Assembly (NCBI GenBank): GCA_025964555.1
Contig: JAOPYQ010000027.1
Coordinates: forward strand, 111,462 to 175,461
Direction of reading: 5' to 3'
DNA from: Thermoleophilia bacterium
Lineage (GTDB): Bacteria > Actinomycetota > Thermoleophilia > Gaiellales > SKUG01
DNA length: 64,000 nucleotides
Part shown: positions 21,764-62,804 of the stretch, one piece after another
Layout of the letters: every line of letters begins with the position of its first letter
How positions within the stretch are numbered: position 1 is the first letter of the stretch
Position numbers and translations under genes: made by a program
Notes under the pieces: generated by a model
Seen by the model: only the letters and a program-made list of their open reading frames with translations
Told to the model about the DNA's origin: nothing
Databases searched by the model: none

Positions 21764-21780
21764 GTCGGAATCCTCAGGTC

Positions 21781-21804
21781 TGGCACTCTCCGAAACGAGT
21801 GCCA
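21781..21804 (-). promoter_or_regulatory. Perfect 8-bp-arm inverted repeat in the lon leader (TGGCACTC-N8-GAGTGCCA)
   Basis: Read directly. Lies 18-41 nt upstream of the lon ATG, just before a GAGGA Shine-Dalgarno-like element. Could be an operator or a 5'-UTR hairpin. Confidence 0.3.
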
Positions 21805-21946
21805 ACTGCGAGTACCGTACGCCCGTTTCCTTGCGCTCGCAACTACATGCCCGTTTTAGCGGGGCCGTGCCCGAAAACGACGTCGCCATCAGGGGTGCCC
21901 AGGGCGGATCGGTCGCCCCTGGCGAGCTGGGCGCGGTCGTCTGGTG

Positions 21947-22049
21947 ACTGTCGCAGCCTGCCTCCACATGCTGGTGGCAGGTTGCCGCGGTCGATTCGCG
22001 TCGGCGAACTGTCGCATCCCGCCTCCACATGTTGGTGGTGCGCTGCCGC
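21947..22049. repeat. Two 42-bp direct repeats (35/42 identical) spaced 61 bp start-to-start, in the lon / dtxR-MCO divergent intergenic region
   Basis: Copy A 21947-21988: actgtcgcagcctgcctccacatgctggtggcaggttgccgc. Copy B 22008-22049: actgtcgcatcccgcctccacatgttggtggtgcgctgccgc. Shared core: GCCTCCACATGyTGGTGG. Confidence 0.6.
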
Positions 22050-22132
22050 AGCTTGGCCGCAGTTGGGCCACAGTGGGAGGTCGTTGGGTTGGTGCTCGCC
22101 CCAGGTATAAATATTTCGGCGGCCTTGCGCCA

Positions 22133-22154
22133 GAGTTTCGTCATGGCTAAACTC
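22133..22154 (+). promoter_or_regulatory. Palindrome GAGTTT-N10-AAACTC ending 5 bp before the dtxR-MCO start; candidate autoregulatory operator
   Basis: Read directly. An unusually AT-rich box, ggtataaatatttc, lies ~20 bp upstream at about 22103-22117 in an otherwise GC-rich intergenic region. Confidence 0.35.
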
Positions 22155-22159
22155 CGGTT

Positions 22160-34162: not shown

Positions 34163-34618
34163 TCAGGGGCGCACGGCGCCGACGTATGCGGCGCCGCTCG
34201 GAAGCGGTGCCACCTCGACACGGCGACCGGTACCGGGCGCGTGCACGTACTGGCCGTCGCCGACGTACACGCCGACGTGGCCGAAGCCGCGATCCCACGT
34301 CCAGACGAGGTCGCCGCGCTGGAGCGCCGACCGGCGCACGCGAGCGCCGTGGTTCCACAGGTCGTAGCTGCTGCGAGCCGCGAGCGGCGCGCCCACCGTG
34401 GCGTACGCGAAGGTCACGAGGCCGGAGCAGTCGAAGCGCTTCGGACCAGCGGATCCGGTGTGGTACGGCGAGCCGACCTTGCCGAGCGCGGTGACCGTGG
34501 CGGCCTCGCGCTGCGCCGGCGTGGTGGCGATCACGCCCGACGCGGCGTGCGCGGGGGCGCCCAGGGCGAGCATCGCCCCGAGCATGCACAGCATCGTTGT
34601 CATCGTCCGTCGCACCAT
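34163..34618 (-). CDS. Secreted NlpC/P60 peptidoglycan endopeptidase (151 aa)
   Basis: Starts at MVRRTMTTMLCMLGAMLALGAPAHA (ATG 34618). Catalytic FDCSGLV and GHVGVYVG. The listed 361-aa ORF is an artefactual extension. Confidence 0.85.
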   Translation of the reverse strand: MVRRTMTTMLCMLGAMLALGAPAHAASGVIATTPAQREAATVTALGKVGSPYHTGSAGPKRFDCSGLVTFAYATVGAPLAARSSYDLWNHGARVRRSALQRGDLVWTWDRGFGHVGVYVGDGQYVHAPGTGRRVEVAPLPSGAAYVGAVRP

Positions 34619-34752
34619 CGCCGGGATGAATTCGGCCGGTGCGGCGATCGAATTGAATGGCCTGAAGCGACTGAAATGCCTGCAGACGGCCACAGCACGT
34701 GGACGACCTGCAGCAACCGCGCCGTGGCGTGGATGCACCCGGTTCGGGGTGC

Positions 34753-35226
34753 CTACGGGCGTACGGCGCCGACGAACGCGCCGCCGCCGGGCAACTGCGC
34801 GACCTCGACGTGGCGACCCGACCCCGGGGCGTGGACGTAGCGGCCCCCGCCGAGGTACATGCCGACGTGGCCGAGGCCGCGATCGTAGGTCCACACGAGG
34901 TCGCCGCGCTTGAGGCCGGCGCGCCTGATGCGCACGCCGTGGCGGAACAGGTCGTAGCTCGTGCGCGCAGCGAGCGGCTTGCCGGCGCGGCGGTAGGCGT
35001 AGTTGACGAGCCCGGAGCAGTCGAAGCTGCTTGGCCCGGTGGCGCCCCACACGTAGGGGGAGCCTGCCTTGTGGGCGGCGACGCTGGCAGCCTGCATGCG
35101 CTGCTTGGCAGTGGTCGAGACGTGTCGGCCAGCTGCGTCGGCAGCTGGCGTGAATGCGAGCAGCGCACCCAGTGCGGACAGGACGGTGGTGGTCTTGGAG
35201 GGGAACATGGCGGCGACTGTCGGCAC
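34753..35226 (-). CDS. Secreted NlpC/P60 peptidoglycan endopeptidase, tandem paralogue
   Basis: Signal peptide. FDCSGLV, GHVGMYLG and the same C-terminal ...FVGAVRP as the neighbouring gene. Alternative start at MFPSK (35208). Confidence 0.85.
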   Translation of the reverse strand: MPTVAAMFPSKTTTVLSALGALLAFTPAADAAGRHVSTTAKQRMQAASVAAHKAGSPYVWGATGPSSFDCSGLVNYAYRRAGKPLAARTSYDLFRHGVRIRRAGLKRGDLVWTYDRGLGHVGMYLGGGRYVHAPGSGRHVEVAQLPGGGAFVGAVRP

Positions 35227-45679: not shown

Positions 45680-48085
45680 CTAGTGCGCCCACTCGACTCG
45701 CGGCACGCGGCGCTGGAGCGCGGCGGGCATCCACCAGTTCGCGGGGCCGAGCCAGCGCATCGTGGCGGGCAGCAGCAGCACGCGCACGATCGTCGCGTCG
45801 AGCGCGAGCGCGACCGCCATCCCGAAGCCGATCTGCTTGATGAGCACGAGCTCGGTCGTGGTGAACGCGATGCCGATGACGATGAGGATGAGTGCCGCCC
45901 CGGTGACGAGGGGCGCGGTGGCGGCCACGCCGCGCGCCGTGGCTTCCTGGTCGTCGTGACCGGCCTGGTAGAGCTCAGTGACCTTGGCGAGCATGAACAC
46001 CTCGTAGTCCATCGACAGGCCGAAGAGCAGGCAGAACAGGATGATCGGGATCGTCGCCTCGGTGTAGCCGATCGGCGCGGTGCCGAGCAGGTCGATCCCG
46101 ACGCCGTTCTGGAAGACCGCGATCACCACCCCGAGCGAGGCGAGGATCGACAGCGTGTCGAGGACGATCGCCTTGAACGGAAGCGTCAGCGAGCGGAACG
46201 CGACGGCGAGCACGATGAGCGTCGAGACGAACATGAGGATGAGCGTGTGCGGCATGCTCGACTTGATCGCGTGCAGGAACTCGATCTCGCCCGCGCCCTG
46301 TCCGCTCACGAGCATCTCGACCGGGAAGTTCGTGCCCTGCACCTCGCGCGCAACGGCTCGCGACACGGCGCCGCCATTGCCGAGTGACCGGTCGCCGTAG
46401 GCGTTGAGCAGCGTGCGGCCGCGCTCCTTGTCGATCTTGACGATCTCGGTGCGGCGGATGTGCTCGACGCCGAGCAACTGCGCCTCGATCGTGTCGAGCT
46501 CGGCCTGCTTCGACGTGCTCGCGATCATGATCACCGGCGACTCGACGCGCTCGTCGAACTTCGACTCGAGCTGGCGCTTGGCGACCATCGACAACGAGTC
46601 GGGCGGCAGGATGTCGTCGTGGGGCACGTCGAGGTGCGCGCCGAGCGTCGGGCTTGCGAGCACGACGAGGATGGCGATGCCGCCGAAGATCGACAGGCCC
46701 GGCTTCTTCATGACGAGATGTGCGAGCCGGTACCAGCCCGTCGTCGTGGGGTCGCGGTCCACCTGCACGCGGCGCACGGTCCACTTCTCCACGCGATGGC
46801 CGATCAGGCCGAGCACGGCGGGCAGGAGCGTGAGCGACGCGAGCACCGTGACGGCGACGACGACCACGCCGCCGAGCGCGATCGCGAACATGATCGGCAG
46901 CGGCATCGCGGCGAGTGCGCCGATGCCCGCGATGACCGCAACGCCGCTGATCGCGGCGGCCCGGCCACTGGTGGCGACCGTGGTGATCGTCGCCTCGCGG
47001 ACGGTGCGACCCGCGGCGAGCTCCTCACGGAAGCGCGACACGCCCAGCAACGAGTAGTCGATGCCGAGCCCGAAGCCGAGCATCGATGCGATGTTCATCA
47101 CGAAGATCGACAGGCCGAGCGGGATCGACAGCACGTGCAGGATCGCGAGCGTCACGACCACCGAGGTCAGGCCGACGAGCAGCGGGATGCTCGCGGCGAC
47201 GACCGTGCCGAAGACGAACAGCAGCACGAGCAGCGCGAGTGGCGTACCGATCGCCTCGGCCTTGGCGAGGTCACGCTTGGACAGTGCCGTCGTGTCGGCG
47301 AACACCGCCATCGTTCCCGCGATCTGGAATTCGTCGCGATCGTAGCCGGCCGACTCGATCGTCGCGAGCAGTTCCTCGTAGCCGTTGATCGCGATGTCGT
47401 CGGTGTCGTCGAAGTAGATCGTGAACGCGACGAGCCGCCCGTCCGTCGACGCGCGCGCCTTCCCGACGGACAGCACGTGGGGCACCCGGTACAGCGCCGG
47501 CGTGATCTTGTCGAAGCGCTTCGTTGCTGCATCGAGCGGACCCGGCACCATCACGACCTGCTGGCCGACCGGCATGCGGAACTCGTCGCGCATCTCCTCG
47601 ATGACCTGGATCGCCTCGCCGTCCTTGAGCAGGAAGCCGCCCTGGGTGAACGACTTCTCGGCTGTGCCCGCCAGCGGCAGGCAGGCGAGGACCATCACGA
47701 TCCATCCCCACGTGATCGTCTTGCGCGCCTGCCACACGCCCTCGGCGAATCGGACGAGGCCGCCGCCGGTATCGGGCAGCGACGAGGGCGACGGTGCCGG
47801 CGCTCCGGGCAGCCCCACGAACACCTCGCCGGGAAGCGCGCCTGACGGTGCGCCCGGGTGCGCAGCCGGGATGCCCGAGGCCGCGTCGTCGAACATGAGG
47901 TCGGCGCAGCGCGCCCAGACGAGTCGACCTGCGCCGGCGTCGACGAGGGCGAATGCGCCATCGAGGCGAACGATCGTGCCGCGCAGGCCGTCCTCGGTGG
48001 AGACGATGTCGCCCGGGACGACGCGTGCTGGCACCGGGCGCGCGCGTGGCGGCCGGAGGAGGAAGACGACCGCGACGGCCGCCAT
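45680..48085 (-). CDS. MMPL-family (RND-type) lipid transporter with a ~115-aa N-terminal extension
   Basis: Two 6-TM MMPL blocks (e.g. GLGIDYSLLGVSRFREE and LLFGLSMDYEVFMLAKV). GC3 stays high back to ATG 48085. Alternative start at ATG 47896. Confidence 0.85.
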   Translation of the reverse strand: MAAVAVVFLLRPPRARPVPARVVPGDIVSTEDGLRGTIVRLDGAFALVDAGAGRLVWARCADLMFDDAASGIPAAHPGAPSGALPGEVFVGLPGAPAPSPSSLPDTGGGLVRFAEGVWQARKTITWGWIVMVLACLPLAGTAEKSFTQGGFLLKDGEAIQVIEEMRDEFRMPVGQQVVMVPGPLDAATKRFDKITPALYRVPHVLSVGKARASTDGRLVAFTIYFDDTDDIAINGYEELLATIESAGYDRDEFQIAGTMAVFADTTALSKRDLAKAEAIGTPLALLVLLFVFGTVVAASIPLLVGLTSVVVTLAILHVLSIPLGLSIFVMNIASMLGFGLGIDYSLLGVSRFREELAAGRTVREATITTVATSGRAAAISGVAVIAGIGALAAMPLPIMFAIALGGVVVVAVTVLASLTLLPAVLGLIGHRVEKWTVRRVQVDRDPTTTGWYRLAHLVMKKPGLSIFGGIAILVVLASPTLGAHLDVPHDDILPPDSLSMVAKRQLESKFDERVESPVIMIASTSKQAELDTIEAQLLGVEHIRRTEIVKIDKERGRTLLNAYGDRSLGNGGAVSRAVAREVQGTNFPVEMLVSGQGAGEIEFLHAIKSSMPHTLILMFVSTLIVLAVAFRSLTLPFKAIVLDTLSILASLGVVIAVFQNGVGIDLLGTAPIGYTEATIPIILFCLLFGLSMDYEVFMLAKVTELYQAGHDDQEATARGVAATAPLVTGAALILIVIGIAFTTTELVLIKQIGFGMAVALALDATIVRVLLLPATMRWLGPANWWMPAALQRRVPRVEWAH

Positions 48086-48240: not shown

Positions 48241-48331
48241 ATGAAACGGCCGTCTGCGGTAATCCCGATGATCTGGTAACGAGGTAGCCGGTTCGCGCCG
48301 GAACGTGCTCCATGACGAGGTACGACACGCG

Positions 48332-49429
48332 ATGACAGCGACCCCATCACGAAACCGCCGAGGCAGCCTGCACCGACAGGTGCGGCCCGCGATCACGCGA
48401 ACGGTGAACCGCCCGACCGTGCGCGCGGCGATCGCCGGTGTCGCCTCGTACCTGCCCGACGAGGTCGTCACCTCCGAGGAGGTCGAGCGCCGCATCGCCG
48501 AGGCGAGCGTCGAGCACGGCTTCGTGCCGGTGCCCGGCATCGTCGAGAAGCTCACGGGCGTTCGCGAGCGCCGCTACAAGCGCCGCGACCAGAACACCTC
48601 CGACCTCGCGGTGGAGGCCGCCATCAAGGCGATGGCGATGGCGGGTGTCACCATCGACGACATCGACCTCATCGTGTTCGGCTCGTCGAGCCAGGACCTC
48701 ATCGAGCCCGCGACCGCGCACATCGTGAGCGCGAAGCTCGGCGGCCGCGCGGTCGTCTTCGACATCAAGAACGCCTGCAACTCGTTCATGAACGGCATGC
48801 AGGTCGCCGATGCGCTCATCCGCACCGGCCAGTACAGGAAGGCGCTCATCTGCTCGGGCGAGTGCCCAAGCGAAGCGGTGCGCTGGGAGATTCGCGACAC
48901 GCAGCACATGAAGGACTCGTTCGCCGGCTACACGTTCGGCGATGCCGGCGCCGCGATGGTCCTCGAAGCGCGCACCGATGGCACCGGCATCCATGAGATC
49001 GACGTGGTCGCAGCGAGCCGGTACTGGGAGCTGTGCACCCTGCCGACCGGCGGCAGCATGCACCCCCGCGACCTGGAGAAGACGTACTTCGAGGGCGACG
49101 GCACGGCGCTGCGCGACGCGTTCATCGAAGTCGGCCCTGGCGTGATCATCGAGCTGTTCAAGCGCACGCGCACCACGTTCGACGACTATGACGTCGTGCT
49201 GTTCCACCAGGTGAGCGAGCAGATGCTCGACGTGTTCCTGAACGTGAGCGGCGTGCCGGAGGAGAAGGTCGTGCGAACGGTGGACCTGCTCGGCAACGTC
49301 GCCAGCACGACGCTGCCGATCCAGCTCGAGAAGGCGATGGAGTCCGGACGCGCCAAGCCCGGCGACAACGTGCTGTGGATCGGCGTCGGAGCGGGCATCA
49401 GCACCGTCGTGATGACCACGCGCCTGTAG
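48332..49429 (+). CDS. KASIII/FabH-like thiolase (OleA-like candidate)
   Basis: Thiolase fold with Cys (DIKNACNSF), His (VLFHQVS) and Asn (LGNVAST). Start is ATG 48332, or GTG 48305 as listed. Confidence 0.85.
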   Translation: MTATPSRNRRGSLHRQVRPAITRTVNRPTVRAAIAGVASYLPDEVVTSEEVERRIAEASVEHGFVPVPGIVEKLTGVRERRYKRRDQNTSDLAVEAAIKAMAMAGVTIDDIDLIVFGSSSQDLIEPATAHIVSAKLGGRAVVFDIKNACNSFMNGMQVADALIRTGQYRKALICSGECPSEAVRWEIRDTQHMKDSFAGYTFGDAGAAMVLEARTDGTGIHEIDVVAASRYWELCTLPTGGSMHPRDLEKTYFEGDGTALRDAFIEVGPGVIIELFKRTRTTFDDYDVVLFHQVSEQMLDVFLNVSGVPEEKVVRTVDLLGNVASTTLPIQLEKAMESGRAKPGDNVLWIGVGAGISTVVMTTRL

Positions 49430-49561
49430 GTCGCGCTGCTCGATGGACCTGTACCTGCCGACCCGATGACACCTCCACGGATCGTCGCGCCCGTGCGACG
49501 CTGCGTGGATCTGCGGCGACGGGCAGGTTCGTGACCTCGGCATGAGGGACAGAACCGAGGC

Positions 49562-50869
49562 ATGTCCGTCGAATCGACCACTCCTGCCTCGACCGGGGCG
49601 TCCCACGCCGCGGAGCCCCGCGACTGGGATCCTGCCGCCCCTGCGAAGCGCCGGAGCGAGCGACGCCTGCTCGCAGCGTCGCGTCCGCTCGCGTGGTTCC
49701 TGCTGCACGCGATCGTGCGCAATCGCCGCGACGTCGTGCACATCCCACGATTGGGCTACGTCATCACGGGCGCGGTCGCGTGTCGCGAAGCGGCCGTCGA
49801 CAGCGAACACTTCCGCAAGGACGGCCCCAAGAGCGCCGGCGCGCTGCTCACCCAGGTGATGGGCAAGACGGCGCTGCTCAACATGGAGGGCCCCGACCAC
49901 GTCGCGCTGCGGCGACGCCTGCAGGGGCTGTTCACGCCCAAGTTCGTCAACGAGCTCGCGGATCGCGCGCTCGCCCCGATCTCGGCGGAGGTCGTCGCCG
50001 ACCTGCAGGCCGGGAAGACGCTCGACGTGTCGCTGCTCGCGCGGCGCGTAACCGGCACGATGATGTGCCACATGGTCGGACTGCGCCTGGAGGGCGAGGC
50101 CCGAGAGAAACGGGCTCGCGAGATGTACAAGCTCGGCCAGCGGCTCGTGGGCATGGTCCCCACGAACATGAAGGAGCTCGACGAGCGCGAGGTCGCCGCA
50201 GCCAAGGCGGTGTTCGAGCAGCTCGTCGACGGCATCGACGAGGTGCACGCCGACGGCGACGAGAACACCATCCCCGGCCGCCTGCGCGAGCTCGGCTTCG
50301 ACCTGGAGGAGACGCGTGGCGTCGTGGGCATGCTGCTCATCGCCGGCACCGAGACGACGTCGACGGCGCTCGTTCGGATCACGTCGCTGCTTTACGACAC
50401 GTCGCAGTGGAAGCGACTGCAGCGCCATCGCGAGCTGCTCGACAACGCGATCGAAGAGGGCCTGCGCTGCGCGACGCCGGTGCCGGTGTCGACTCGAACG
50501 TCCGCCAAGGACTTCACCTTCCACGGCACGAAGATCCGCAAGGACGAGCTCGTGCTCATCGCGTGGGCGCGCGCCATCCGCGACGACCGCGTGATCGAGC
50601 GCGGCACCGAGTTCGACATCGCGCGCGAGATCCCCCGCGAGCTGCGGCTCATCTGGTTCGGCGCCGGCCCACACTTCTGCCTCGGCTACAACCTGGCGAT
50701 GCGCGAGCTCACGACGGTGCTCACCGCGCTGCTCGACGGAGCACCGGAGATCGAGATCACGAAGCGCAAGGCAGCCCGGAAGGTGCTGCTGCCCACATGG
50801 GACGAGCTGTACGTGCGCCGCGCGGGCGGCGCCGCGACGAGCCACGCGCCGGCCGGGGCGAGCGCATGA
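49562..50869 (+). CDS. Cytochrome P450 (first of three)
   Basis: I-helix AGTETT, ExxR (EGLR), heme loop FGAGPHFCLG. Confidence 0.9.
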   Translation: MSVESTTPASTGASHAAEPRDWDPAAPAKRRSERRLLAASRPLAWFLLHAIVRNRRDVVHIPRLGYVITGAVACREAAVDSEHFRKDGPKSAGALLTQVMGKTALLNMEGPDHVALRRRLQGLFTPKFVNELADRALAPISAEVVADLQAGKTLDVSLLARRVTGTMMCHMVGLRLEGEAREKRAREMYKLGQRLVGMVPTNMKELDEREVAAAKAVFEQLVDGIDEVHADGDENTIPGRLRELGFDLEETRGVVGMLLIAGTETTSTALVRITSLLYDTSQWKRLQRHRELLDNAIEEGLRCATPVPVSTRTSAKDFTFHGTKIRKDELVLIAWARAIRDDRVIERGTEFDIAREIPRELRLIWFGAGPHFCLGYNLAMRELTTVLTALLDGAPEIEITKRKAARKVLLPTWDELYVRRAGGAATSHAPAGASA

Positions 50870-52506
50870 CGAGCAGCGCGGTCACCGACGCACGCGACAT
50901 CGCCGGGATCATCGAGCGTCTCCACGGCGCCGGGTTCGAGGTCATGGTCGACGAGCTCGTCCGCGCGGCGCGCACCGTCGGCGACGGCGTGCTCATGACC
51001 GAAGGCAGGCGCACGGTCACGGGCGCGGAGGTCGCGCACGCCTTTGACGTGCTGCCACGCGCGCTCGCGGCGCGCGGGATGCGCCCGGGGCAGGTGGTGC
51101 TGTTCGGCGTGCGTCCGGGAATCGATGCGCTCCTGCTGCTGCTCGGCGCGATGCGAACCGGCGCGATCGTGACGTTCGTGGATCCGGGCGTCGGCAGCGA
51201 GCTGTTCGAGCGACGCCTCGAGCTGCTCGCCCCCGACTGGGTCATGGCCGAATCGCTGCTCTACGTCGCCTCGGCCCCGACCCCGCTGCGCGGGTACCTG
51301 CGCCGTCGTGGGCTGACACTGCCGCGCCTGTCGAAGCTGCCCGGCACGCACATCCGCGTCGGTCGACGATTTCCAGGCGTGCCCAGGGGCGAGTCGCTCG
51401 ACGACCTGCTGGCCGACGCGACCGTCGCGGATCGCGCACTGCCCGCGCTCGACGTCGATGCGCCGAGCCTCGTCATCTTCACGTCCGGCACGACCGGCGA
51501 CCCCAAGGGCGTCCAGCACACGGGCCGCTCCATGGCAGCAGCCGTGCGTCTGTTCCTGCAGCACTTCGAGCTGCCGCCCGATTCGGTGATGTACAACCAC
51601 AACATCCACTCGTTCGTGATGGCGATCCTCGCGCAGGTGCCCACCGTCGTGGAGCCGATGGAGTTCCGGACCACCCGATTCATCGAGCACTGCGAGTCGC
51701 ACGGAGTCACGCACACGTTCGGCCTTCCGGTCGATGCGTACACGATGGTGCAGTACTGCGAAGCGCGCGACCGCAAGCTCCCGCAGTCCCTGCGCCAGAT
51801 GGTGCTGTACTCGGCGCCGGTCACCACGGGCGTGCTCGAGCGCATCCACGCGATCGCGCACCCGCAGCTCCGCGTGACCTGCGCCTACGCGATGACAGAG
51901 GCTGCGCCAGTGGCCTGGATCGACTCGCGTGACAAGTGCGCCTGGAAGGGCGACGGCGACGTCGTGGGGCCGATCGCCCCCGAGGTCGAGTACCGCATCG
52001 ATGCCGACACCCACGAGCTGCACATCAAGGGCGACAACATCCACCGTGGTTACGCGAACATCCACCCCGACCGCATCGAGTGGCACGCGACCGGCGACCT
52101 GGCGCGTGTCGACGAGGCCGGCAACATCGTGCTCATGGGTCGCGCCAAGGACATGATCATCCGCGGCGACTTCAACCTGTATCCGGGCCTGTACGAGGAG
52201 ACCGTCAGCCGCATCCCCGGCGTCGGCGCGTGCGCGTTCATCGGACGCCCGGATCCGGTCACCGCCGACGAGCGTGTCCTGCTGTTCGTCGAGCCCGATC
52301 CGCGCGAGTTCACCCGTGGCGACGGCGACAGGCTCGCGAAGGAGATCATGCGCGCCCTGGAAGGCGGCGGCGAGCTCGGGATCGATCGCAAGGCGCTCCC
52401 GGACGAAGTCCGCGTGCTCGACGCGCTGCCGCGCTCCGGTCGCTCGAGCAAGATCGACCACAAGGCGCTGCGCCAGCTCGCGGTGGAGGACGCCGCGCAT
52501 GCGTGA
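50866..52506 (+). CDS. ANL-superfamily adenylate-forming enzyme (acyl-AMP/CoA ligase or OleC-like beta-lactone synthetase), 546 aa
   Basis: ATG 50866 overlaps the P450 stop (ATGA). Motifs FTSGTTGDPKGV and TGDLARVDEAGN. Confidence 0.85.
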   Translation: MTSSAVTDARDIAGIIERLHGAGFEVMVDELVRAARTVGDGVLMTEGRRTVTGAEVAHAFDVLPRALAARGMRPGQVVLFGVRPGIDALLLLLGAMRTGAIVTFVDPGVGSELFERRLELLAPDWVMAESLLYVASAPTPLRGYLRRRGLTLPRLSKLPGTHIRVGRRFPGVPRGESLDDLLADATVADRALPALDVDAPSLVIFTSGTTGDPKGVQHTGRSMAAAVRLFLQHFELPPDSVMYNHNIHSFVMAILAQVPTVVEPMEFRTTRFIEHCESHGVTHTFGLPVDAYTMVQYCEARDRKLPQSLRQMVLYSAPVTTGVLERIHAIAHPQLRVTCAYAMTEAAPVAWIDSRDKCAWKGDGDVVGPIAPEVEYRIDADTHELHIKGDNIHRGYANIHPDRIEWHATGDLARVDEAGNIVLMGRAKDMIIRGDFNLYPGLYEETVSRIPGVGACAFIGRPDPVTADERVLLFVEPDPREFTRGDGDRLAKEIMRALEGGGELGIDRKALPDEVRVLDALPRSGRSSKIDHKALRQLAVEDAAHA

Positions 52507-53284
52507 CGCGTCCGAGCCCGGGCACGCGACATGGGTCGTGGTGCCCGGCTACAACGAGGAAGCCTGGATCGGATCGACGATCGACTCGCTCGCGCGCCAG
52601 GAGAACGCGTCCGAGCTGACGGTGCTGGTCGTGGACAACGCGAGCACCGACGACACCGCAGGCGCGGTGGCGACGGCTGCCGATCGCAATCCGGGCCTCG
52701 ACGTACGCGTGCTGCGCGAGGACGAGAAGGGCACCGGCGCCGCGAGCGACACCGGCTTCCGGCACGCGATCGCACATGGCGCGACGGTCGTGCTGCGCAC
52801 CGACTCGGACTGCGTCGCCGATCCCGACTGGGCGAGGACGATGCTCGCTGCGGTCAACGACCGCAACCTCGACCTCGTTGCCGGCAACCTGCGCCAGCGC
52901 ACCGACGACGGCATGGGCACGGCGCTCGGTCCGGTGCTCGTCCCCGTCGTGCTCGCGCTCATCCGCTTCATCGGGCGCGTGCGCCCCAACAACAACGACA
53001 ACCCTGCCTACCGGACGAAGTTCGTCGTGACACCGGGCGCGAACCTGGCGATCCGCGCGCAGGCCTACCTCGATTCGGGCGGCTTTCCACGCACCGCGAT
53101 CGAGGACGCCCACGAGGACAAGGCGATCGTCAATGCCGTGCGGCTCGTGAGCGACCGCATCGGCTTCGAGAAGCGGTCGATGGTGCGTTTCTCCAACCGG
53201 CGCGTGGCACGGAACGGGTTGCTCAAGGTGCTGCGCTGGTACTTCAACCATGGCGGAGGCGGCGCGGAGGTGGACGTTCGATGA
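52499..53284 (+). CDS. Family 2 glycosyltransferase (soluble, 261 aa)
   Basis: ATG 52499 overlaps the upstream gene by 8 nt. Motifs VVVPGYNEE, VDNASTDDT and RTDSD (DxD). Confidence 0.8.
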   Translation: MRDASEPGHATWVVVPGYNEEAWIGSTIDSLARQENASELTVLVVDNASTDDTAGAVATAADRNPGLDVRVLREDEKGTGAASDTGFRHAIAHGATVVLRTDSDCVADPDWARTMLAAVNDRNLDLVAGNLRQRTDDGMGTALGPVLVPVVLALIRFIGRVRPNNNDNPAYRTKFVVTPGANLAIRAQAYLDSGGFPRTAIEDAHEDKAIVNAVRLVSDRIGFEKRSMVRFSNRRVARNGLLKVLRWYFNHGGGGAEVDVR

Positions 53285-54279
53285 GCGACGATCAGGCAAT
53301 GACACCTCGCCGGTCACGCGTGGCGGTGACGGGCGCAAGCGGGTTCGTCGGCGGCAAGGCGGCCGACTGGCTCGAGGAGCATGGCTACGAGGTGTACCGC
53401 TTCGGCCGCCGCTCGGTGACCAAGGTGCCCGAGCGCATCCGTGACAGCTATCGCAGCTGGGACATCGAGGCCGGCAAGCTCGACCAGGCGCCCGAGGTCG
53501 ACGCGGTCGTGCACTGCGCCGGCGCCGTCGACGACTGGGGCGTGTACGAGCCCTTCCGCCTCGCGAACGTCGAGGGCACGCGCACCGTGCTGCAGACCTT
53601 TCCCCACGCACGCTTCGTGCACGTCTCGAGTGCGAGCGTCTACGACCCCCACGCGGACCACTCCCTCGTGCGCGAGGACCAGGCGGACCCGGCCGACGAA
53701 GCCGACACCGCGCGCGTCACGTGGCTCAACCCCTACGGGCGTACCAAGCGCATGGCCGAGAACGTCGTCGCCACCACCGCCACCAACCGCTCGATCATCC
53801 TGCGCCCGCACGCCGTGTATGGCCCGGGTGACACGCAGCTGCTGCCGCGACTGACATCGCGCATCCGCTTCGGTCGTCTCATCGTCGCAGGAGACGAGAC
53901 GGTGCGCGTATCGCTCACGCACGTCGACAACTTCTCCTACGCGATCCAGCTCGCGATCGAGTCCGACGCCACCGGGGCATTCAACATCTCCGACCCGACC
54001 GCACCCACGCTCGGCGAGTGCCTCACGACGGTGCTGCGCACGATCGGCAAGCCCGAGCGACTGCTGTGGCTGCCGACAGGACCCGTCACCGCGCTCGCAT
54101 TCGTGATGGAGGCGGCGTGCGGGTTCGGCCGCGGACCCAAGCCGCCGATCACGCGCTTCCAGCTGTCGCACCTGACGCGCGACTTCGTCTACGACCTGAC
54201 GAAGGCGCGCGAGCAGCTCGGCTACGACCCGGCGATCGACCTGCCGCAGGGGCTCGAGACCGTCGACGTGCCTGCGTAG
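53281..54279 (+). CDS. NAD-dependent epimerase/dehydratase-family SDR (3-beta-HSD/OleD-like), 332 aa
   Basis: ATGA overlap at 53281. Rossmann VTGASGFVGG; catalytic YGRTK. Confidence 0.8.
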   Translation: MSDDQAMTPRRSRVAVTGASGFVGGKAADWLEEHGYEVYRFGRRSVTKVPERIRDSYRSWDIEAGKLDQAPEVDAVVHCAGAVDDWGVYEPFRLANVEGTRTVLQTFPHARFVHVSSASVYDPHADHSLVREDQADPADEADTARVTWLNPYGRTKRMAENVVATTATNRSIILRPHAVYGPGDTQLLPRLTSRIRFGRLIVAGDETVRVSLTHVDNFSYAIQLAIESDATGAFNISDPTAPTLGECLTTVLRTIGKPERLLWLPTGPVTALAFVMEAACGFGRGPKPPITRFQLSHLTRDFVYDLTKAREQLGYDPAIDLPQGLETVDVPA

Positions 54280-54345
54280 CGCGTTTCGCTCGACCGCCGT
54301 ACGGAAACGCACGGTGAACGACCCACCGTCGACAGGGGAACACCC

Positions 54346-55659
54346 GTGAGCTGTCCGATCGATCATGCAGGCGCGTCGGCGATCGCCGATGCCGCCTGGG
54401 GCCCCGGCCCGCAGGCACGCCCCGGCGCCAAGGGCGCGAAGGCGAACGAGCACAAGGTCTTTCGCGCCTCCCAGCGCCTCATGTGGTACTTCAACATGTA
54501 TGCGCGCTGGCGCGGCAAGCGCGGCGCGGACGTGGTGGCAATCCCGTTCCTGGGCTACGGGATCAACGGTGCGGTCGCGGTGCGCGAGATGCTGCTCGAC
54601 GAGGCGCGCTTCCCGAACACGAACTCCAGGCCCGAGACCGTGCTGTTGAGCCAGGTCGTCGGCCCGGCGTCGCTCACGAACCAGAACGGCAAGCCGCACC
54701 GCGACCTGCGGCTGCAGCTGACCGACCTGTTCACGCCCAGATACGTGAGCGAGCTGTGCGACCGCGTGCTCACCGACGTGATGGACAACCTCGAGCGCCA
54801 GCTGCGCGCGGGCGAGACGGTCGACATGGCGCGCTTCACGAAGATCATGACCGGCGCGATCGTCGCGGACCTCAACGGCGAGGAGTTCGAGACGGTCGAG
54901 GCGCAGGAACGGCGCGCACTCGAGCTGTCGGAGCTCGGTCGTCAGCTCGCGAACATGATCCCCGCGCGGCTGCGTCCGTTCACGCCGAAGGAGCTGGCGA
55001 AGGTCAACGAGCGTCTCGACCTGCTGGTGGAGGGGCTCGAGGAGACGTACGAAGCCGGCGAGGAGCGCACGGTGCCGGGCCGCTTCAAGGCGCGCGGGGT
55101 GCCGTGGGACGTCGCGCGGGGCATCCTCGTCGTGCTCATCCTCGGTGGGCTCGAGACCACGCAGTCGGGCGGTTCCAGGCTCGTCGCGCTCCTGAGCGAC
55201 ACGAACCAGTGGGCCGACCTGCACGCGCGCCCCGACAAGCTCATGGAGACGATCGACGAGAGCATCCGTGTCACGACTCCCGTGCCGATCATCACGCGCT
55301 GGGTCGCCGAGGACACGGTGTTCCGCGGCACGCGCATGAAGCAGGACAAGCTGGTCGTGGCGTTCCTCAACAACGCGGTGCGCGACGAGCGCGTGATCCC
55401 CGACGGCGGGGACTTCTGCCCGGCGCGCACGATCCCGCGCGAGCTGCGCCAGCTGCACTTCGGTGCCGGCCCGCACTTCTGCATCGGCAACAACCTCGCG
55501 CGCGGCGAGATGAAGATGTTCATGGAGCGCGTGCTGCGGGTGCCGGGCGAGATCGAGGTCGTCGACCGAACGTTCGCCAAGCACTGCCTCATCCCGACGT
55601 ACAAGCACCTGATGGTGCGGATCAAGCCGGGCAGCGCGAGCAAGCAGCACGCAGCGTGA
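54346..55659 (+). CDS. Cytochrome P450 (second of three)
   Basis: GTG start. I-helix LGGLETT, ExxR (ESIR), heme loop FGAGPHFCIG. Confidence 0.9.
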   Translation: MSCPIDHAGASAIADAAWGPGPQARPGAKGAKANEHKVFRASQRLMWYFNMYARWRGKRGADVVAIPFLGYGINGAVAVREMLLDEARFPNTNSRPETVLLSQVVGPASLTNQNGKPHRDLRLQLTDLFTPRYVSELCDRVLTDVMDNLERQLRAGETVDMARFTKIMTGAIVADLNGEEFETVEAQERRALELSELGRQLANMIPARLRPFTPKELAKVNERLDLLVEGLEETYEAGEERTVPGRFKARGVPWDVARGILVVLILGGLETTQSGGSRLVALLSDTNQWADLHARPDKLMETIDESIRVTTPVPIITRWVAEDTVFRGTRMKQDKLVVAFLNNAVRDERVIPDGGDFCPARTIPRELRQLHFGAGPHFCIGNNLARGEMKMFMERVLRVPGEIEVVDRTFAKHCLIPTYKHLMVRIKPGSASKQHAA

Positions 55660-56942
55660 GCGCAACCACGACCGGTGGGGCAGCACCCCGCGTGGTGCAG
55701 CCCAACGCCGCCGCGCTCGAAGCCATGCGACACGCCGACCCCGGCGCGAAGCTCGCGAAGCGGCACGAGGCGAAGCTGTTTCGCGCCTCGCAGCGCATCT
55801 TCTGGTGCTTCAACATGTACGCGCGGTATCGGCGCCGCGACATCGTGAAGGTCCCGTTCCTGGGCTATGCCATCAACGGCGCCGTCGCGGTGCGCGAGGC
55901 GCTGCTCGATGCGGAGAAGTTCCCGAACACCAACTCCAGGCCCGACACCGTGCTCGTGACGCAGCTCGTCGGCCCGCAGTCGCTCACCAACCAGAACGGC
56001 GAGCCGCACAAGCAGCTGCGACTGCAGCTGCAGGACCTATTCACGCCGAAGTACGTTCGCGACCTGTGCGACCGCGTGCTGACCCCCGTCATGGACGACG
56101 TTCGCGCAGCGCTCCTGCGCGGCGAGACGGTCGACGTGTCGCGCTGGGCGCGCATCATCACCGGCACGATCGTGATGAGCATGAACGGCGAGCACCTGAC
56201 CGGCGCGGCGCGGGACGAGCGGGCGATGGAACTCACCGAGATCGGGCGCGAGATCGCGAACATGGTCCCGGCGCGGCTCAAGGCCGTGGGCGACAAGCGA
56301 GTCGACCACGCGAACGCGCTCGTCGACCGGCTCATCGTCGGCGTCCGCGAGACGTACGAGGCTGGCGACGAGGGGACGATTCCGGGTCGCATGAAGGCGC
56401 GCGGGATCCCGTGGGAGGTCGCGCGCGGACTCATCGTGGTGCTCATCCTGGGCGGCACGGAGACGACGCAGTCGGGCAGCGCGCGGATCGTCGCGATGCT
56501 CACCGACACGAACCAGTGGGGCGTGCTGCGCGCCGACCACAACCTGCTCGACAACGCCATGGACGAGGGCCTGCGCGCGTGCACGCCCGTGCCGATCATC
56601 ACGCGCTGGGTGGCGAAGGACTGCGAGTTCCGCGGAACGAAGATGCGCAAGGACAAGCTCGTCGTCACGTTCCTCAACAACGCGGTGCGCGACAAGCGCG
56701 TGATCGATCGCGGCGGCGACTTCGACATCACGCGAACGATCCCGCGTGAGCTGCGCCTGCTCAACTTCGGCGCCGGGCCGCACTTCTGCCTCGGCTACAA
56801 CCTCGCCAAGCGCGAGATCGGCATGATGCTTGAGCAGCTCCTCGCCCTCCCGCGAGAGGTGGAGATCGTCGATCGCACCTACGCCGACGCCGTGCTCATG
56901 CCGGCGTACAGGCACCTGATGATCCGCATGCGGCCGGCCTGA
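55656..56942 (+). CDS. Cytochrome P450 (third of three; close paralogue of the second)
   Basis: GTG 55656 overlaps the upstream stop (GTGA). LGGTETT, EGLR and FGAGPHFCLG. Long collinear identity with the preceding P450 (FRASQR..W.FNMYAR...FPNTNSRP.TVL...LTNQNG.PH). Confidence 0.9.
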   Translation: MSATTTGGAAPRVVQPNAAALEAMRHADPGAKLAKRHEAKLFRASQRIFWCFNMYARYRRRDIVKVPFLGYAINGAVAVREALLDAEKFPNTNSRPDTVLVTQLVGPQSLTNQNGEPHKQLRLQLQDLFTPKYVRDLCDRVLTPVMDDVRAALLRGETVDVSRWARIITGTIVMSMNGEHLTGAARDERAMELTEIGREIANMVPARLKAVGDKRVDHANALVDRLIVGVRETYEAGDEGTIPGRMKARGIPWEVARGLIVVLILGGTETTQSGSARIVAMLTDTNQWGVLRADHNLLDNAMDEGLRACTPVPIITRWVAKDCEFRGTKMRKDKLVVTFLNNAVRDKRVIDRGGDFDITRTIPRELRLLNFGAGPHFCLGYNLAKREIGMMLEQLLALPREVEIVDRTYADAVLMPAYRHLMIRMRPA

Positions 56943-57055
56943 ACGAGTGGCCCGAATCACTGCCTGTGCGTCATCGACGTCACATCCCCCGTGACTTTCA
57001 TGACGCACATGCCACGAGGACGGAACCGCAGGGCCCGCCGACACGACGTACAGGC

Positions 57056-58363
57056 ATGCCGGTACGCCGGAACATCTCGCTGCTCATCGCAGGAAACGGC
57101 GCGTCGCTGCTCGGCGACGGCATGTTCGTGGTCGCCATCGGCTTCGCCGTGTTCGCGGTCGGCGGTGGCGCGGGCGCGCTCGGCGTGATCCTGCTGGCGG
57201 GCGTGGCGACGATCTTCGCGTGCATCCTGCCCGCGGGGGTGCTGGTGGATCGGGTCTCGCGTCGCCGCGTGCTCGTCGGCGCGGACGTCGTCCGTTGCCT
57301 CATCCAGCTGTCCAGTGCGGCGATCGTCGCGCACGACGACGCCCACTGGTGGTGGCTGCTGCCGGGATCGATCCTGTTCGGCGCGGTCACCGCGCTGCAC
57401 CAGCCGGCGACGATGTCGTTCACGGCCGAGGTCGCTCCGCCGGAGGAGCTCGAGAAGGTGAATGGATCGATCCAGGCGCTGCGCGGCCTGGGCATCGTGC
57501 TCGGCGGCGCCATCGCAGGATGGATCGTCGCCACGCGTGGACCGGTCGACGTCATGGTCGTCGACGCGATCACGTTCCTGGTCTGCGCGATCTGCATCGC
57601 CGCGATCCGCATGCCTGATCACGCGGAGGCCACGCCCGCGGCTCGCGTCGCGGGTGGAACGACAGGCGTCGACGACATCAAGGCCGCGGTGTCGGTCGTG
57701 CGATCGCACACCTGGCTCGTGCACGGACTGCTGCTCATCACCGGGTTCGTGGTGGTGAGCTACGGACCGATCCAGGTCGTCGGGCCCGCCGCCGCCGAGG
57801 ACAACGCAGTCGCCGCGGGAATGTCAGCCTCGATGTTCTGGGCATGGATGTCAGCCGCCACCGCGATCGGGATGATCGTGGGCGGCGTGACTGCGTTCGT
57901 GCGCCCCGTCGGCGAGACGATGAACGCGCTGCGCATCCTGCTCGTGCTCGGCGCGCTCGGGCCGATCGGCATGGCCGCAGGCGTCGAGCCGCTCCTGACG
58001 CTCCCCGGCTTCGCGGCGATCGGCGGCGCGATGGGGCTGTTCTCCTCCGGCTGGGAATCGGTCAAGCAGTCCCGCATCGAGCAGCGCATGCTCGCGCGGG
58101 TCGCATCGCTCGACATGTTCGCGCAGCTCGTCGGGATGATGGTCGGCGTGACGGCCGCCGCGGCGATCGCGACGTTCATGAGCACCGACGCGGTGCTGTG
58201 GTGGATCGGGATCGGCTGCGCCGCGCTCGCCGTGGTCTCGGCCACGAGCCCCGCCCTCACCGGGATCTTCCGCGTGCGCGCGGGTGAGCTGGCGAGCGCA
58301 GGTGAGCTGGCGAATTCGGGTGGCGAACCGACCGATGCCGTCGCGCCGGCGCTCGCGAACTGA
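57056..58363 (+). CDS. MFS transporter (EntS/MFS_3-like exporter)
   Basis: Starts at MPVRRNISLLIAGNGASLLGDGMF (ATG 57056). About 12 hydrophobic helices. Confidence 0.85.
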   Translation: MPVRRNISLLIAGNGASLLGDGMFVVAIGFAVFAVGGGAGALGVILLAGVATIFACILPAGVLVDRVSRRRVLVGADVVRCLIQLSSAAIVAHDDAHWWWLLPGSILFGAVTALHQPATMSFTAEVAPPEELEKVNGSIQALRGLGIVLGGAIAGWIVATRGPVDVMVVDAITFLVCAICIAAIRMPDHAEATPAARVAGGTTGVDDIKAAVSVVRSHTWLVHGLLLITGFVVVSYGPIQVVGPAAAEDNAVAAGMSASMFWAWMSAATAIGMIVGGVTAFVRPVGETMNALRILLVLGALGPIGMAAGVEPLLTLPGFAAIGGAMGLFSSGWESVKQSRIEQRMLARVASLDMFAQLVGMMVGVTAAAAIATFMSTDAVLWWIGIGCAALAVVSATSPALTGIFRVRAGELASAGELANSGGEPTDAVAPALAN

Positions 58364-61484: not shown

Positions 61485-62804
61485 ATGGATCTGCAGCACC
61501 GAACCCGCGCGCTTCGACGCGCTCTTCGCGACCACCTGCCACTCGTCGTCGTCGGCACATGCGTCGCCGCGACGAGCGCATATGGCGCCGTCTCGATTTC
61601 TGGACAGAGCATCATCAACGGGACCGTCACGAGCGCGGACGTTCGCAATGGTTCGCTGCAGCTCGTGGACCTGTCGCCCAAGGCACGCCGCTCGATGCGG
61701 GGAGCCGCCGGCGCGACCGGAGCAGGTGGCGCCACTGGCGCCGCCGGGCTTGCGGGCCTCGCCGGACCGATGGGTCCCGTTGGGCCGATGGGTCCGGCCG
61801 GCAAGTGGAGCGGCGTGACCGCGAGCTCGGGCGACACGAGCGTGGACAACGACACGAATTCAGGGGACGCCAACAACGTTGGTGTCCCTGGACCTGCCGG
61901 CGCGATGGGTCCGCAGGGCCCCGCGGGCGACAAGGGCGCGCCCGGCGACAAGGGCGCGCCCGGCGACAAGGGCGCACCCGGTGACAAGGGCGAGGGCGGC
62001 GACAAGGGCGAGAAGGGCGACAAGGGCGAGGGCGGCGACAAGGGCGAGAAGGGTGACAAGGGCGACAAGGGCGAGGGTGGCGACAAGGGCGAGAAGGGTG
62101 ACAAGGGTGACAAGGGTGACAAGGGACAAGGCGGCGACAAGGGCGAGAAGGGTGACAAGGGTGAAGGCGGCGACAAGGGCGACAAGGGTGACAAGGGAGA
62201 AGGCGGCGACAAGGGTGAGAAGGGCGACAAGGGCGACAAGGGTGAGCCTGGCGAGAAGGGCAACAAGGGCGACCAGGGCGAGCTTGGCCTGATGGGCATG
62301 ACCGGACTCACCGGCGACAAGGGCGCGAAGGGTGACAAGGGTGACAAGGGCGACGACGGCCTGTCCGGTGGCAAGGGAGACAAGGGCGAGAAGGGTGACA
62401 AGGGTGAGAAGGGTGACGCCGGCAGCGCCGGTACGACCGGACCCATCGGACCCATGGGACCCGTCGGGCCGATCGGACCGCAGGGCATCCAGGGCCTGAC
62501 CGGCCCGGCCTTCGTTCCCACGCTCGACGTCGTGCTTGGCACGCCTGTCTCGACCGGCAACGGGTCCGACCCGACCGCCTCCGCGACGGCTGCGTGCAAC
62601 AACGCAGATGCGAACGGCGACGACATCCTCATCGGCGGTGGCTTCCAGCGCACGGATGCCACGGCCAACGCGGGTCGCGTCGACGCGTCGTTCCTCAACA
62701 CGCCGCCGAACCCCGACGTGTGGACTGTCACGTTCCGACGTGACAGCTCCACCAACAACACGAACGTCAGCTATCGCGCATACGCGATCTGCCTCGTCGT
62801 CTGA
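61485..62804 (+). CDS. Membrane-anchored collagen-like triple-helix repeat protein (GDK-rich) with a ~98-aa C-terminal globular domain
   Basis: GGGAGG lies upstream of ATG 61485. N-terminal anchor LPLVVVGTCVAATSAYG. A first short G-X-Y run (GAAGATGAGGATGAAGLAGLAGPMGPVGPMGPAG) is followed by 70 uninterrupted G-X-Y triplets. Confidence 0.85.
   Translation: MDLQHRTRALRRALRDHLPLVVVGTCVAATSAYGAVSISGQSIINGTVTSADVRNGSLQLVDLSPKARRSMRGAAGATGAGGATGAAGLAGLAGPMGPVGPMGPAGKWSGVTASSGDTSVDNDTNSGDANNVGVPGPAGAMGPQGPAGDKGAPGDKGAPGDKGAPGDKGEGGDKGEKGDKGEGGDKGEKGDKGDKGEGGDKGEKGDKGDKGDKGQGGDKGEKGDKGEGGDKGDKGDKGEGGDKGEKGDKGDKGEPGEKGNKGDQGELGLMGMTGLTGDKGAKGDKGDKGDDGLSGGKGDKGEKGDKGEKGDAGSAGTTGPIGPMGPVGPIGPQGIQGLTGPAFVPTLDVVLGTPVSTGNGSDPTASATAACNNADANGDDILIGGGFQRTDATANAGRVDASFLNTPPNPDVWTVTFRRDSSTNNTNVSYRAYAICLVV
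61881..62510 (+). repeat. 630-bp uninterrupted G-X-Y coding repeat dominated by 9-bp GGYGACAAG (Gly-Asp-Lys) and GGCGAGAAG (Gly-Glu-Lys) units
   Basis: Read directly. Runs from GVPGPAG at 61881 to GLTGPA at 62510. Highly iterated GDKGEKGDKGEGGDKG blocks. Confidence 0.9.

Follow-up and report, generated by a model that had tools for sequence, protein, structure and literature searches.

What kind of molecule is built by a bacterial operon in which homologues of the head-to-head lipid condensation enzymes OleA and OleD stand beside an adenylate-forming enzyme of the ANL superfamily, a glycosyltransferase and three cytochromes P450, and in which the decarboxylase OleB is missing? The question is raised by a seven-gene locus from an uncultured soil actinobacterium of the class Thermoleophilia (contig JAOPYQ010000027.1), which we analyzed within a 64-kb stretch of DNA, hereafter called the window (~70% G+C). 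The answer that we favor, with a confidence only a little above even, is an Ole-type head-to-head lipid pathway that lacks the decarboxylase and whose product would subsequently be oxidized, glycosylated and exported. Lipids of the kinds at issue are pharmacologically and physiologically important: nocardiolactone and lipstatin, from which orlistat is made, are β-lactones, and the mycolic acids belong to the α-branched β-hydroxy lipids. To our knowledge, few head-to-head condensation pathways have been characterized so far.

The seven genes form an operon with a conserved core

The genes lie on one strand in the order KASIII thiolase, P450, ANL enzyme, family-2 glycosyltransferase (GT2), short-chain dehydrogenase/reductase (SDR), P450 and P450, and Pfam agrees with all seven domain assignments. 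They are listed here with the lengths of their products in amino acids (aa):

48332..49429, + strand: OleA-like KASIII thiolase, 365 aa (Pfam ACP_syn_III and ACP_syn_III_C)
49562..50869, + strand: core cytochrome P450 (P450a), 435 aa (Pfam p450)
50866..52506, + strand: ANL adenylate-forming enzyme, 546 aa (Pfam AMP-binding and AMP-binding_C)
52499..53284, + strand: family-2 (GT-A fold) glycosyltransferase, 261 aa (Pfam Glycos_transf_2)
53281..54279, + strand: OleD-like extended SDR, predicted 2-alkyl-3-oxoalkanoate reductase, 332 aa (Pfam Epimerase/3Beta_HSD)
54346..55659, + strand: accessory P450 (P450b), 437 aa (Pfam p450)
55656..56942, + strand: accessory P450 (P450c), 428 aa (Pfam p450)

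Seven same-strand genes with these coordinates and domains had been proposed in the original prediction, and they are borne out by Pfam and by the G+C content at third codon positions (GC3), which is 0.90-0.94 in the seven gene frames. The four overlapping stop and start codons that had been described can likewise be read directly in the sequence, as ATGA at 50866, ATGCGTGA (8 nt) at 52499, ATGA at 53281 and GTGA at 55656. The two other junctions are uncoupled, with gaps of 132 bp between KASIII and P450a and 66 bp between SDR and P450b, and folding against shuffled sequences revealed no significant hairpin in either gap (z = -0.9 and -0.6). For the thiolase, ATG 48332 is preferred as the start to the alternative GTG 48305, because a GAGG lies ~10 nt 5' of it.

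A scan of species-representative genomes with an alignment of the ANL enzyme returned 515 relatives, mostly in natural-product-rich genera and uncultured soil lineages; the layout counts that follow refer to the best 80 of the 515 relatives' loci. A five-gene core of KASIII, GT2, P450, ANL and SDR genes lies within 5.5 kb in 70 of the 80, and the order KASIII-GT2-P450-ANL-SDR is found in 64 loci. The gene order of the window occurs in three, and L006 has this order with an inserted extra P450; more than one P450 gene is nearby in 40 loci, and an MmpL transporter gene in five. Hosts of the full core include Thermoleophilia, Mycobacterium intermedium, Mycolicibacterium cosmeticum, Actinomadura, Catellatospora, Lentzea, Saccharothrix, Spirillospora and Streptomyces, together with Gemmatimonadaceae and a myxobacterium of the Polyangiales, and a gammaproteobacterial locus (L030) holds KASIII, P450, ANL, SDR and MmpL genes, with no GT2 detected at the locus. 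The closest relative, from another Thermoleophilia assembly (L003), is 77-85% identical to the window and keeps its nine-gene layout, including an orthologue of P450b. Because L003 keeps this layout and 70 of the 80 loci keep the five-gene core, the arrangement is more than chance, and the seven genes are a genuine operon.

The suggestion that all seven genes make up a single unit is plausible, but it has to accommodate L003, where a 1.3-kb insertion with an unrelated open reading frame (ORF) follows the SDR gene and splits the P450b/P450c pair from the core; the pair is thus a separable accessory module. The inserted ORF (L003, 9093-10079) encodes 328 aa, and its C-terminus resembles a DUF559-type endonuclease by eye. 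The loci of M. intermedium (L004) and M. cosmeticum (L005) have the Thermoleophilia gene order and are 49-68% identical to the window proteins, whereas other actinomycete copies of the cassette are mostly 36-54% identical to them. This closeness suggests horizontal transfer of the cassette between Thermoleophilia and the two mycobacterial lineages.

The thiolase and the reductase resemble OleA and OleD

The original prediction had built the locus around an OleA/OleC/OleD-like core, and for its thiolase an OleA-type reading, as opposed to a housekeeping FabH, is well supported by comparison of sequences and models. Residues Cys149, His292 and Asn322 are unchanged across 76 family members from related loci. 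When the thiolase is aligned to the structure of Xanthomonas oryzae OleA (3fk5), Glu125 within the query sequence 'QDLIEPATA' falls opposite the OleA sequence 'RDYLEPSTA'; the facing OleA residue is, by register with Cys143, Glu117, the base for the non-decarboxylative Claisen condensation. The OleA-type glutamate is kept in 73 of the 76 cassette thiolases and in all 73 that belong to the main form of the cassette. FabH/PqsD-type KASIII enzymes share with the window thiolase the fold and the Cys-His-Asn triad and give similar overall sequence scores, but in the three FabHs that we aligned the position of Glu125 is occupied by Phe or Ile, and FabH has the motif 'HQAN' where the query and OleA both have 'HQVS'.

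Curated models and structural comparisons point in the same direction as the residues. A canonical oleABCD locus from a metagenome scan (L084) served as the control for the NCBIfam models; NF006720, confirmed as an OleA model by the 465 bits that canonical OleA scores on it, is the top NCBIfam match of the window thiolase at 207 bits. A profile built from the cassette thiolases gives OleA 174 bits versus 158 bits for E. coli FabH. The AlphaFold2 model of the thiolase (pLDDT 84) has template-modeling (TM) scores of ~0.8 to both OleA and FabH structures, and the top five PDB matches found for it by Foldseek are all X. campestris OleA, narrowly ahead of FabH. Two orthologues also carry the JGI name 'acyl-CoA:acyl-CoA alkyltransferase'. 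Plain BLAST and PDB scores were set aside as uninformative for the distinction between OleA and FabH, which was decided by the residue-level, curated-model and control comparisons; the PDB matches are Burkholderia FabH at 132 bits and Xanthomonas OleA at 107-113 bits, and the thiolase is 29.6% identical to Xanthomonas-type OleA.

The reductase, which had been called OleD-like, clearly appears to have OleD as its closest family. Two OleD models lead its NCBIfam matches at 141 and 113 bits, the next, unrelated family reaching 67 bits, and a profile made from the cassette SDRs gives canonical OleD 217 bits. Over 330 aa, the window SDR and canonical OleD share 31% identity, and the invariant residues of the family are the TGxxGxxG motif (T17-G18-x-x-G21-x-x-G24), S116/S119, and Y152 and K156 of YxxxK.

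The ANL enzyme and its affinity to OleC

The third member of the proposed core, whose sequence is 100% identical to an NCBI protein from a metagenome-assembled Thermoleophilia genome, is harder to place. Its adenylation motifs are intact, and the positions that do not vary in the family include T206-S207-G208-T209-T210, Y341 with T344-E345, G410-D411, G425-R426 with K428-D429, and the C-terminal K529. NF006754, shown to be an OleC-family model by the 747 bits of canonical OleC, ranks second of 90 models for the window enzyme, at 141 bits; among five other members of the ANL family it ranks first in four and second in the fifth, with 134-200 bits across the five, in every case far short of its cutoff. 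On any CoA-ligase model the enzyme reaches at most 157 bits, and its matches to the FadD3 and CasG models are weak as well. In this it is unlike genuine CoA ligases: the generic long-chain ligase model gives E. coli FadD and two paralogues from actinomycetes 320-430 bits, and NF006754 lies outside their top 25 models. The OleC-family models cover mainly the N-terminal domain of the ANL enzyme. As with the thiolase, plain BLAST and PDB scores were uninformative, in this case between OleC and FadD.

P450s, the glycosyltransferase and a catabolic alternative

All three P450s have intact FGAGPHFC(L/I)G, ExxR and (A/G)GxET motifs, so that the heme-cysteine loop and the acid-alcohol pair of the I-helix are kept; the last motif reads AGTET in P450a. 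P450b and P450c share 62% identity, P450c and P450a 47%, values from which we take P450b and P450c to be lineage-specific duplicates. In the GT2 family alignment the motifs 'RTDxD' and 'EDxHED' are invariant. The AlphaFold2 model of the GT2 has a pLDDT of 90 and yields generic GT-A matches in the fold search (TM ~0.6), so the acceptor of the enzyme is not inferable from that search. Many GT2 orthologues are named in UniRef, by automatic label, after CrtQ, an enzyme that glycosylates a carboxylate.

Some of these matches could also be read in catabolic terms. The best PDB matches of P450a (96 bits) and P450b are reconstructed ancestral CYP125 proteins, the SDR matches 3Beta_HSD and, weakly, human sterol-4-alpha-carboxylate 3-dehydrogenase, and together with the weak FadD3 and CasG matches of the ANL enzyme this would yield an operon for the degradation of lipids or steroid side chains, in which the P450 would be a CYP125-like hydroxylase, the ANL enzyme an acyl-CoA ligase, the SDR a 3β-HSD-type dehydrogenase and the KASIII a thiolase. 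All matches to catabolic families are, however, far under their cutoffs, and the flanks carry exporters and not uptake systems. We rejected this reading, and consider it very improbable, because the GT2 is a core member of the cassette and because the thiolase, of KASIII type and with the OleA glutamate, belongs to the condensing and not to the degradative enzymes.

Absence of OleB and comparison with known systems

Neither the window nor any of 82 cassette loci gave a match to canonical OleB by tblastn, and the annotation of the window contains no α/β-hydrolase, acyl carrier protein (ACP), thioesterase, nonribosomal peptide synthetase (NRPS), ferredoxin, NDP-sugar or malonyl-transfer gene. 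Within the 64 kb, the absence of OleB, ACP, thioesterase and NRPS that had been reported therefore holds. The accompanying claim that the gene combination was unrecorded does not, as the five-gene core had already been described by Smith et al. (mBio 2020, PMC7064751), who reported a cluster of 'OleA, glycosyltransferase, OleC, P450, OleD' in Actinoplanes atraurantiacus, whose genome lacks oleB, and predicted a sequence of condensation, reduction, hydroxylation, glycosylation and ring closure that leads to a β-lactone. The OleA-like, glycosyltransferase, ANL, P450 and OleD-like genes, all contiguous in the window and without oleB, match this published composition. The biological reading in the original prediction, which is partly supported and consistent with the absence of OleB, is essentially the published one for this cassette type. 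Full-text searches of the later literature returned no paper identifying the product of the cassette.

The A. atraurantiacus cluster and the window are alike in their five domain types, in the lack of oleB and in the identity of the thiolase to Xanthomonas OleA, which is 29.1% (to X. campestris OleA) in the former (PMC7064751) and 29.6% in the latter; the cassette also occurs in Catellatospora, which belongs to the Micromonosporaceae, the family of A. atraurantiacus. The window differs in its gene order, its two extra P450 paralogues, its divergently oriented MmpL gene, its major facilitator superfamily (MFS) transporter gene and its Thermoleophilia host. The window locus is an elaborated orphan variant of a known pathway type, to which it adds the two P450 paralogues, for three P450s in all, the MmpL, the MFS transporter and a strong hairpin after the last P450. 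In the published work the A. atraurantiacus thiolase turned over p-nitrophenyl hexanoate in cells, which shows that it forms the acyl-enzyme (PMC7064751).

With the OleABCD pathway to long-chain olefins in Xanthomonas, Shewanella and Micrococcus, in which OleB is the β-lactone decarboxylase, the window has in common an OleA of the homodimer type that carries Cys, His, Asn and Glu, as well as an OleD-like reductase; its ANL enzyme has the OleC family as best specific model. It differs in lacking OleB, in identities of only 30%, 23% and 31% to OleA, OleC and OleD with all curated cutoffs missed, and in the addition of P450, GT2 and exporters. The β-lactone pathways NltABCD of Nocardia, for nocardiolactone, and LstABCD of Streptomyces, for lipstatin, also resemble the window, each having a KASIII-type head-to-head enzyme, an OleD-type reductase and, by description, an ANL enzyme, and no OleB. 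In these systems, however, the KASIII enzyme is a heterodimer with Cys and Glu on separate subunits, whereas both residues are in the single thiolase of the window, and their clusters are without a core P450 or GT2. The work on nocardiolactone places the Glu of the NltAB heterodimer on NltB and describes the β-lactone synthetases as a tight ANL clade.

Evidence against a head-to-head pathway and the alternatives it supports

Several observations weigh against the head-to-head reading. Each of the three core enzymes falls short of the curated cutoff of its leading Ole model: the thiolase scores 207 bits against 285 on NF006720 (the cutoffs of the FabH models are likewise missed), the SDR 141 against 580 on the OleD model, and the ANL enzyme 141, far under 478, on NF006754. 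The thiolase is in a near-tie by BLAST, with OleA at 116 bits and E. coli FabH at 111 bits. The ANL enzyme is just 23% identical to canonical OleC (68-74 bits), level with FadD-type ligases, and a profile of its family places an unrelated actinomycete ANL paralogue (158 bits) over OleC (142 bits). The purified A. atraurantiacus thiolase gave no condensation with any C8-C16 acyl-CoA (PMC7064751), and Claisen chemistry is for that reason unproven for the clade. The comparison with that organism is one of composition, as A. atraurantiacus is absent among the 120 matches listed for the Catellatospora orthologue, which are mostly from Actinomadura and Spirillospora. Finally, three loci from two Chloroflexia and one unclassified Proteobacteria genome (L009-L011) encode relatives of the ANL enzyme at ~40% identity, accompanied in L009 and L011 by GT2 and P450 relatives, and their KASIII enzymes are FabH-like and without the OleA glutamate. 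L009 (3243-11593), the locus of the three that was annotated with Pfam, has in this order an SDR, a metallo-β-lactamase-fold protein, a KASIII lacking Glu, a P450, an MFS transporter, a GT2 and the ANL enzyme, and L011 has two KASIII genes, neither of which encodes the Glu. The trio of ANL, GT2 and P450 is consequently not strictly bound to OleA chemistry, which suggests a module able to pair with different condensing chemistry; on one reading, the SDR and the ANL enzyme would receive a free β-keto acid in the main version and in that of L009-L011 alike.

These loci bear most directly on an alternative in which the condensing enzyme is primed as in PqsA/PqsD or FabH systems. The ANL enzyme would then activate an unusual, perhaps P450-oxidized, acid as a CoA ester or adenylate, the KASIII would join it to malonyl-CoA or malonyl-ACP in a decarboxylative condensation, reduction of the β-keto group by the SDR would follow, and the GT2 would glycosylate the product, a linear 3-hydroxy-acyl glycolipid in which no two chains are joined head to head. 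Beyond the Glu-less KASIII enzymes that accompany the same ANL, GT2 and P450 types, and the metallo-β-lactamase-fold protein of L009, such a route is compatible with the inactivity of the Actinoplanes enzyme on C8-C16 acyl-CoAs, with an ANL enzyme that is not convincingly OleC, and with plain sequence scores by which the thiolase is equally near FabH, PqsD and OleA. All 73 main-cassette thiolases nevertheless have the OleA-specific Glu where Phe or Ile is found in decarboxylating KASIII enzymes, and the fold matches of the thiolase are led by OleA structures. The nearest family of the SDR, OleD, acts on free 2-alkyl-3-keto acids, and the window is without an ACP or malonyl-transfer gene. We regard priming of this kind as unlikely.

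A different alternative retains the Ole-like front end and alters only the role of the ANL enzyme, which would not act as a β-lactone synthetase but would activate the 2-alkyl-3-hydroxy acid and pass it on to a nucleophile such as CoA or a sugar, so that the product would be an open-chain, mycolic-acid-like glycolipid or a glycosyl ester. The position of the enzyme outside the curated OleC models, with a match that is mainly N-terminal, is in line with this proposal, although most members of the ANL family still have their best specific model in the OleC family. The CrtQ names of the GT2 orthologues would fit glycosylation of a carboxylate, but they are automatic labels. MmpL transporters, one of which is encoded beside the operon, typically export acylated glycolipids. 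An 804-aa fusion of ANL and GT2 (P0029, encoded at 3387-5801 of L165) lies in an otherwise typical cassette and would also suit an ANL enzyme that works together with the glycosyltransferase; it comes, however, from a single 7-kb short-read contig and sits at the 8-nt overlap of the two genes, where one indel suffices to create it, so that it could be either a real fusion or a frameshift. It was dropped as strong evidence of functional linkage. We judge an open-chain product of this origin to be rather improbable.

Taken over the three enzymes, the OleA/OleC/OleD-like core stands for the thiolase and the SDR, whereas the ANL enzyme is OleC-like only weakly and equivocally, given its 23% identity and a family profile that does not single out OleC. 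The enzyme appears to represent a deep, separate ANL lineage whose best specific affinity is to the β-lactone synthetases, and as to its chemistry the sequence is equivocal.

Flanking genes and the remainder of the window

The operon is bordered by two transporter genes and a hairpin:

45680..48085, - strand: MmpL-family RND transporter, candidate lipid exporter, divergent from the operon (Pfam MMPL, 4e-63)
56962..57012, + strand: stable hairpin with 22-nt arms, 20 nt past the P450c stop (inverted-repeat tool)
57056..58363, + strand: MFS transporter (Pfam MFS_1); the ORF opens at 56966, with the likely start at 57056 by GC3

The best NCBIfam match of the MmpL protein is the MmpL3 model, at 262 bits and under its cutoff. 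An MmpL gene adjoins the cassette also in L003, L007, L021, L030 and L048, and an MFS gene lies 3' of it in L002, L003, L007 and L009. The hairpin has a folding energy of -30.2 kcal/mol (z = -4.64), with none of 200 shuffles equally stable; it is without a U-tract, and in L003 a hairpin of other sequence occupies the equivalent position. Judged from its fold and placement, it is probably the 3' end or terminator of the operon. A scan for consensus promoters and terminators between 45 and 60 kb returned nothing beyond the expectation from shuffles and did not report this hairpin, and Rfam and tRNA scans of the window gave no matches.

The remaining genes of the window are unrelated to the operon and include those for a fructose-bisphosphate aldolase, an aldehyde dehydrogenase, an ABC transporter and a Lon protease, among others. 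Besides the operon-adjacent MmpL, the window encodes another RND transporter at 16085-19150 (- strand), which is of the AcrB type. From 12147 to 1 (- strand) an ORF of at least 4,049 codons without a stop runs past the start of the window; its sole Pfam matches are the bacterial Ig-like domains Big_13, Big_7, Big_3_2 and Big_3_3, and the ORF presumably encodes a giant protein of the surface or adhesin type. A 600-codon ORF at 22151-23953 (+ strand) combines a DtxR/IdeR-type repressor (Fe_dep_repress, Fe_dep_repr_C and FeoA; residues 22-232) with two multicopper-oxidase domains (residues 360-598), and may be a true fusion or a read-through of two genes. It overlaps the Lon ORF on the opposite strand (19409-23149), whose N-terminal extension is implausibly long, its domains beginning at residue 469. 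Two tandem NlpC/P60 peptidase genes lie at 34163-35226 (- strand), and a collagen triple-helix repeat protein is encoded at 61665-62804 (+ strand; Pfam Collagen, 2.7e-34).

A proposed pathway and its implications

The data themselves establish which genes are present, their catalytic residues and family affinities, the conservation of the cassette and the lack of OleB. From these the head-to-head pathway can be drawn as follows, each of its chemical steps being one that we infer. The OleA-like thiolase, acting as a homodimer, would join two acyl-CoAs without decarboxylation to form a 2-alkyl-3-keto acid, with one chain held on Cys149 and the other deprotonated by Glu125 of the partner subunit. 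The OleD-like SDR would then reduce this compound to the 2-alkyl-3-hydroxy acid, whose carboxylate the ANL enzyme would adenylate; the most economical outcome would be closure of a β-lactone, as with OleC and NltC, and an ester or a CoA thioester would be the alternatives. The core P450 may hydroxylate an alkyl chain and the GT2 may glycosylate a hydroxyl, or possibly the carboxylate, while in the Thermoleophilia version the two further P450 paralogues would provide additional oxidations. The amphiphilic product would finally be exported by the MmpL transporter, the MFS transporter or both.

On a broader view, we tentatively propose, at somewhat less than even confidence, that the cassette encodes an undescribed and widespread class of exported, oxygenated and glycosylated lipids, either mycolic-acid-like (α-branched and β-hydroxylated) or β-lactones, whose producers would include non-mycolate Actinomycetota, Gemmatimonadota and myxobacteria. 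The ANL enzyme would in that case branch deeply as a sister to the β-lactone synthetases and might use another acceptor, and the Thermoleophilia version, with its three P450s and MmpL, would be the most heavily oxidized form. The idea of such a pathway is already in the literature; the value of the present finding lies in how widely the cassette occurs, in its variants and in the concrete target that it gives to the search for a product. If the proposal is true, the cassette would widen head-to-head chemistry to oxidized and glycosylated products, and its divergent ANL lineage and single-subunit OleA enzymes may have something to offer to biocatalysis.

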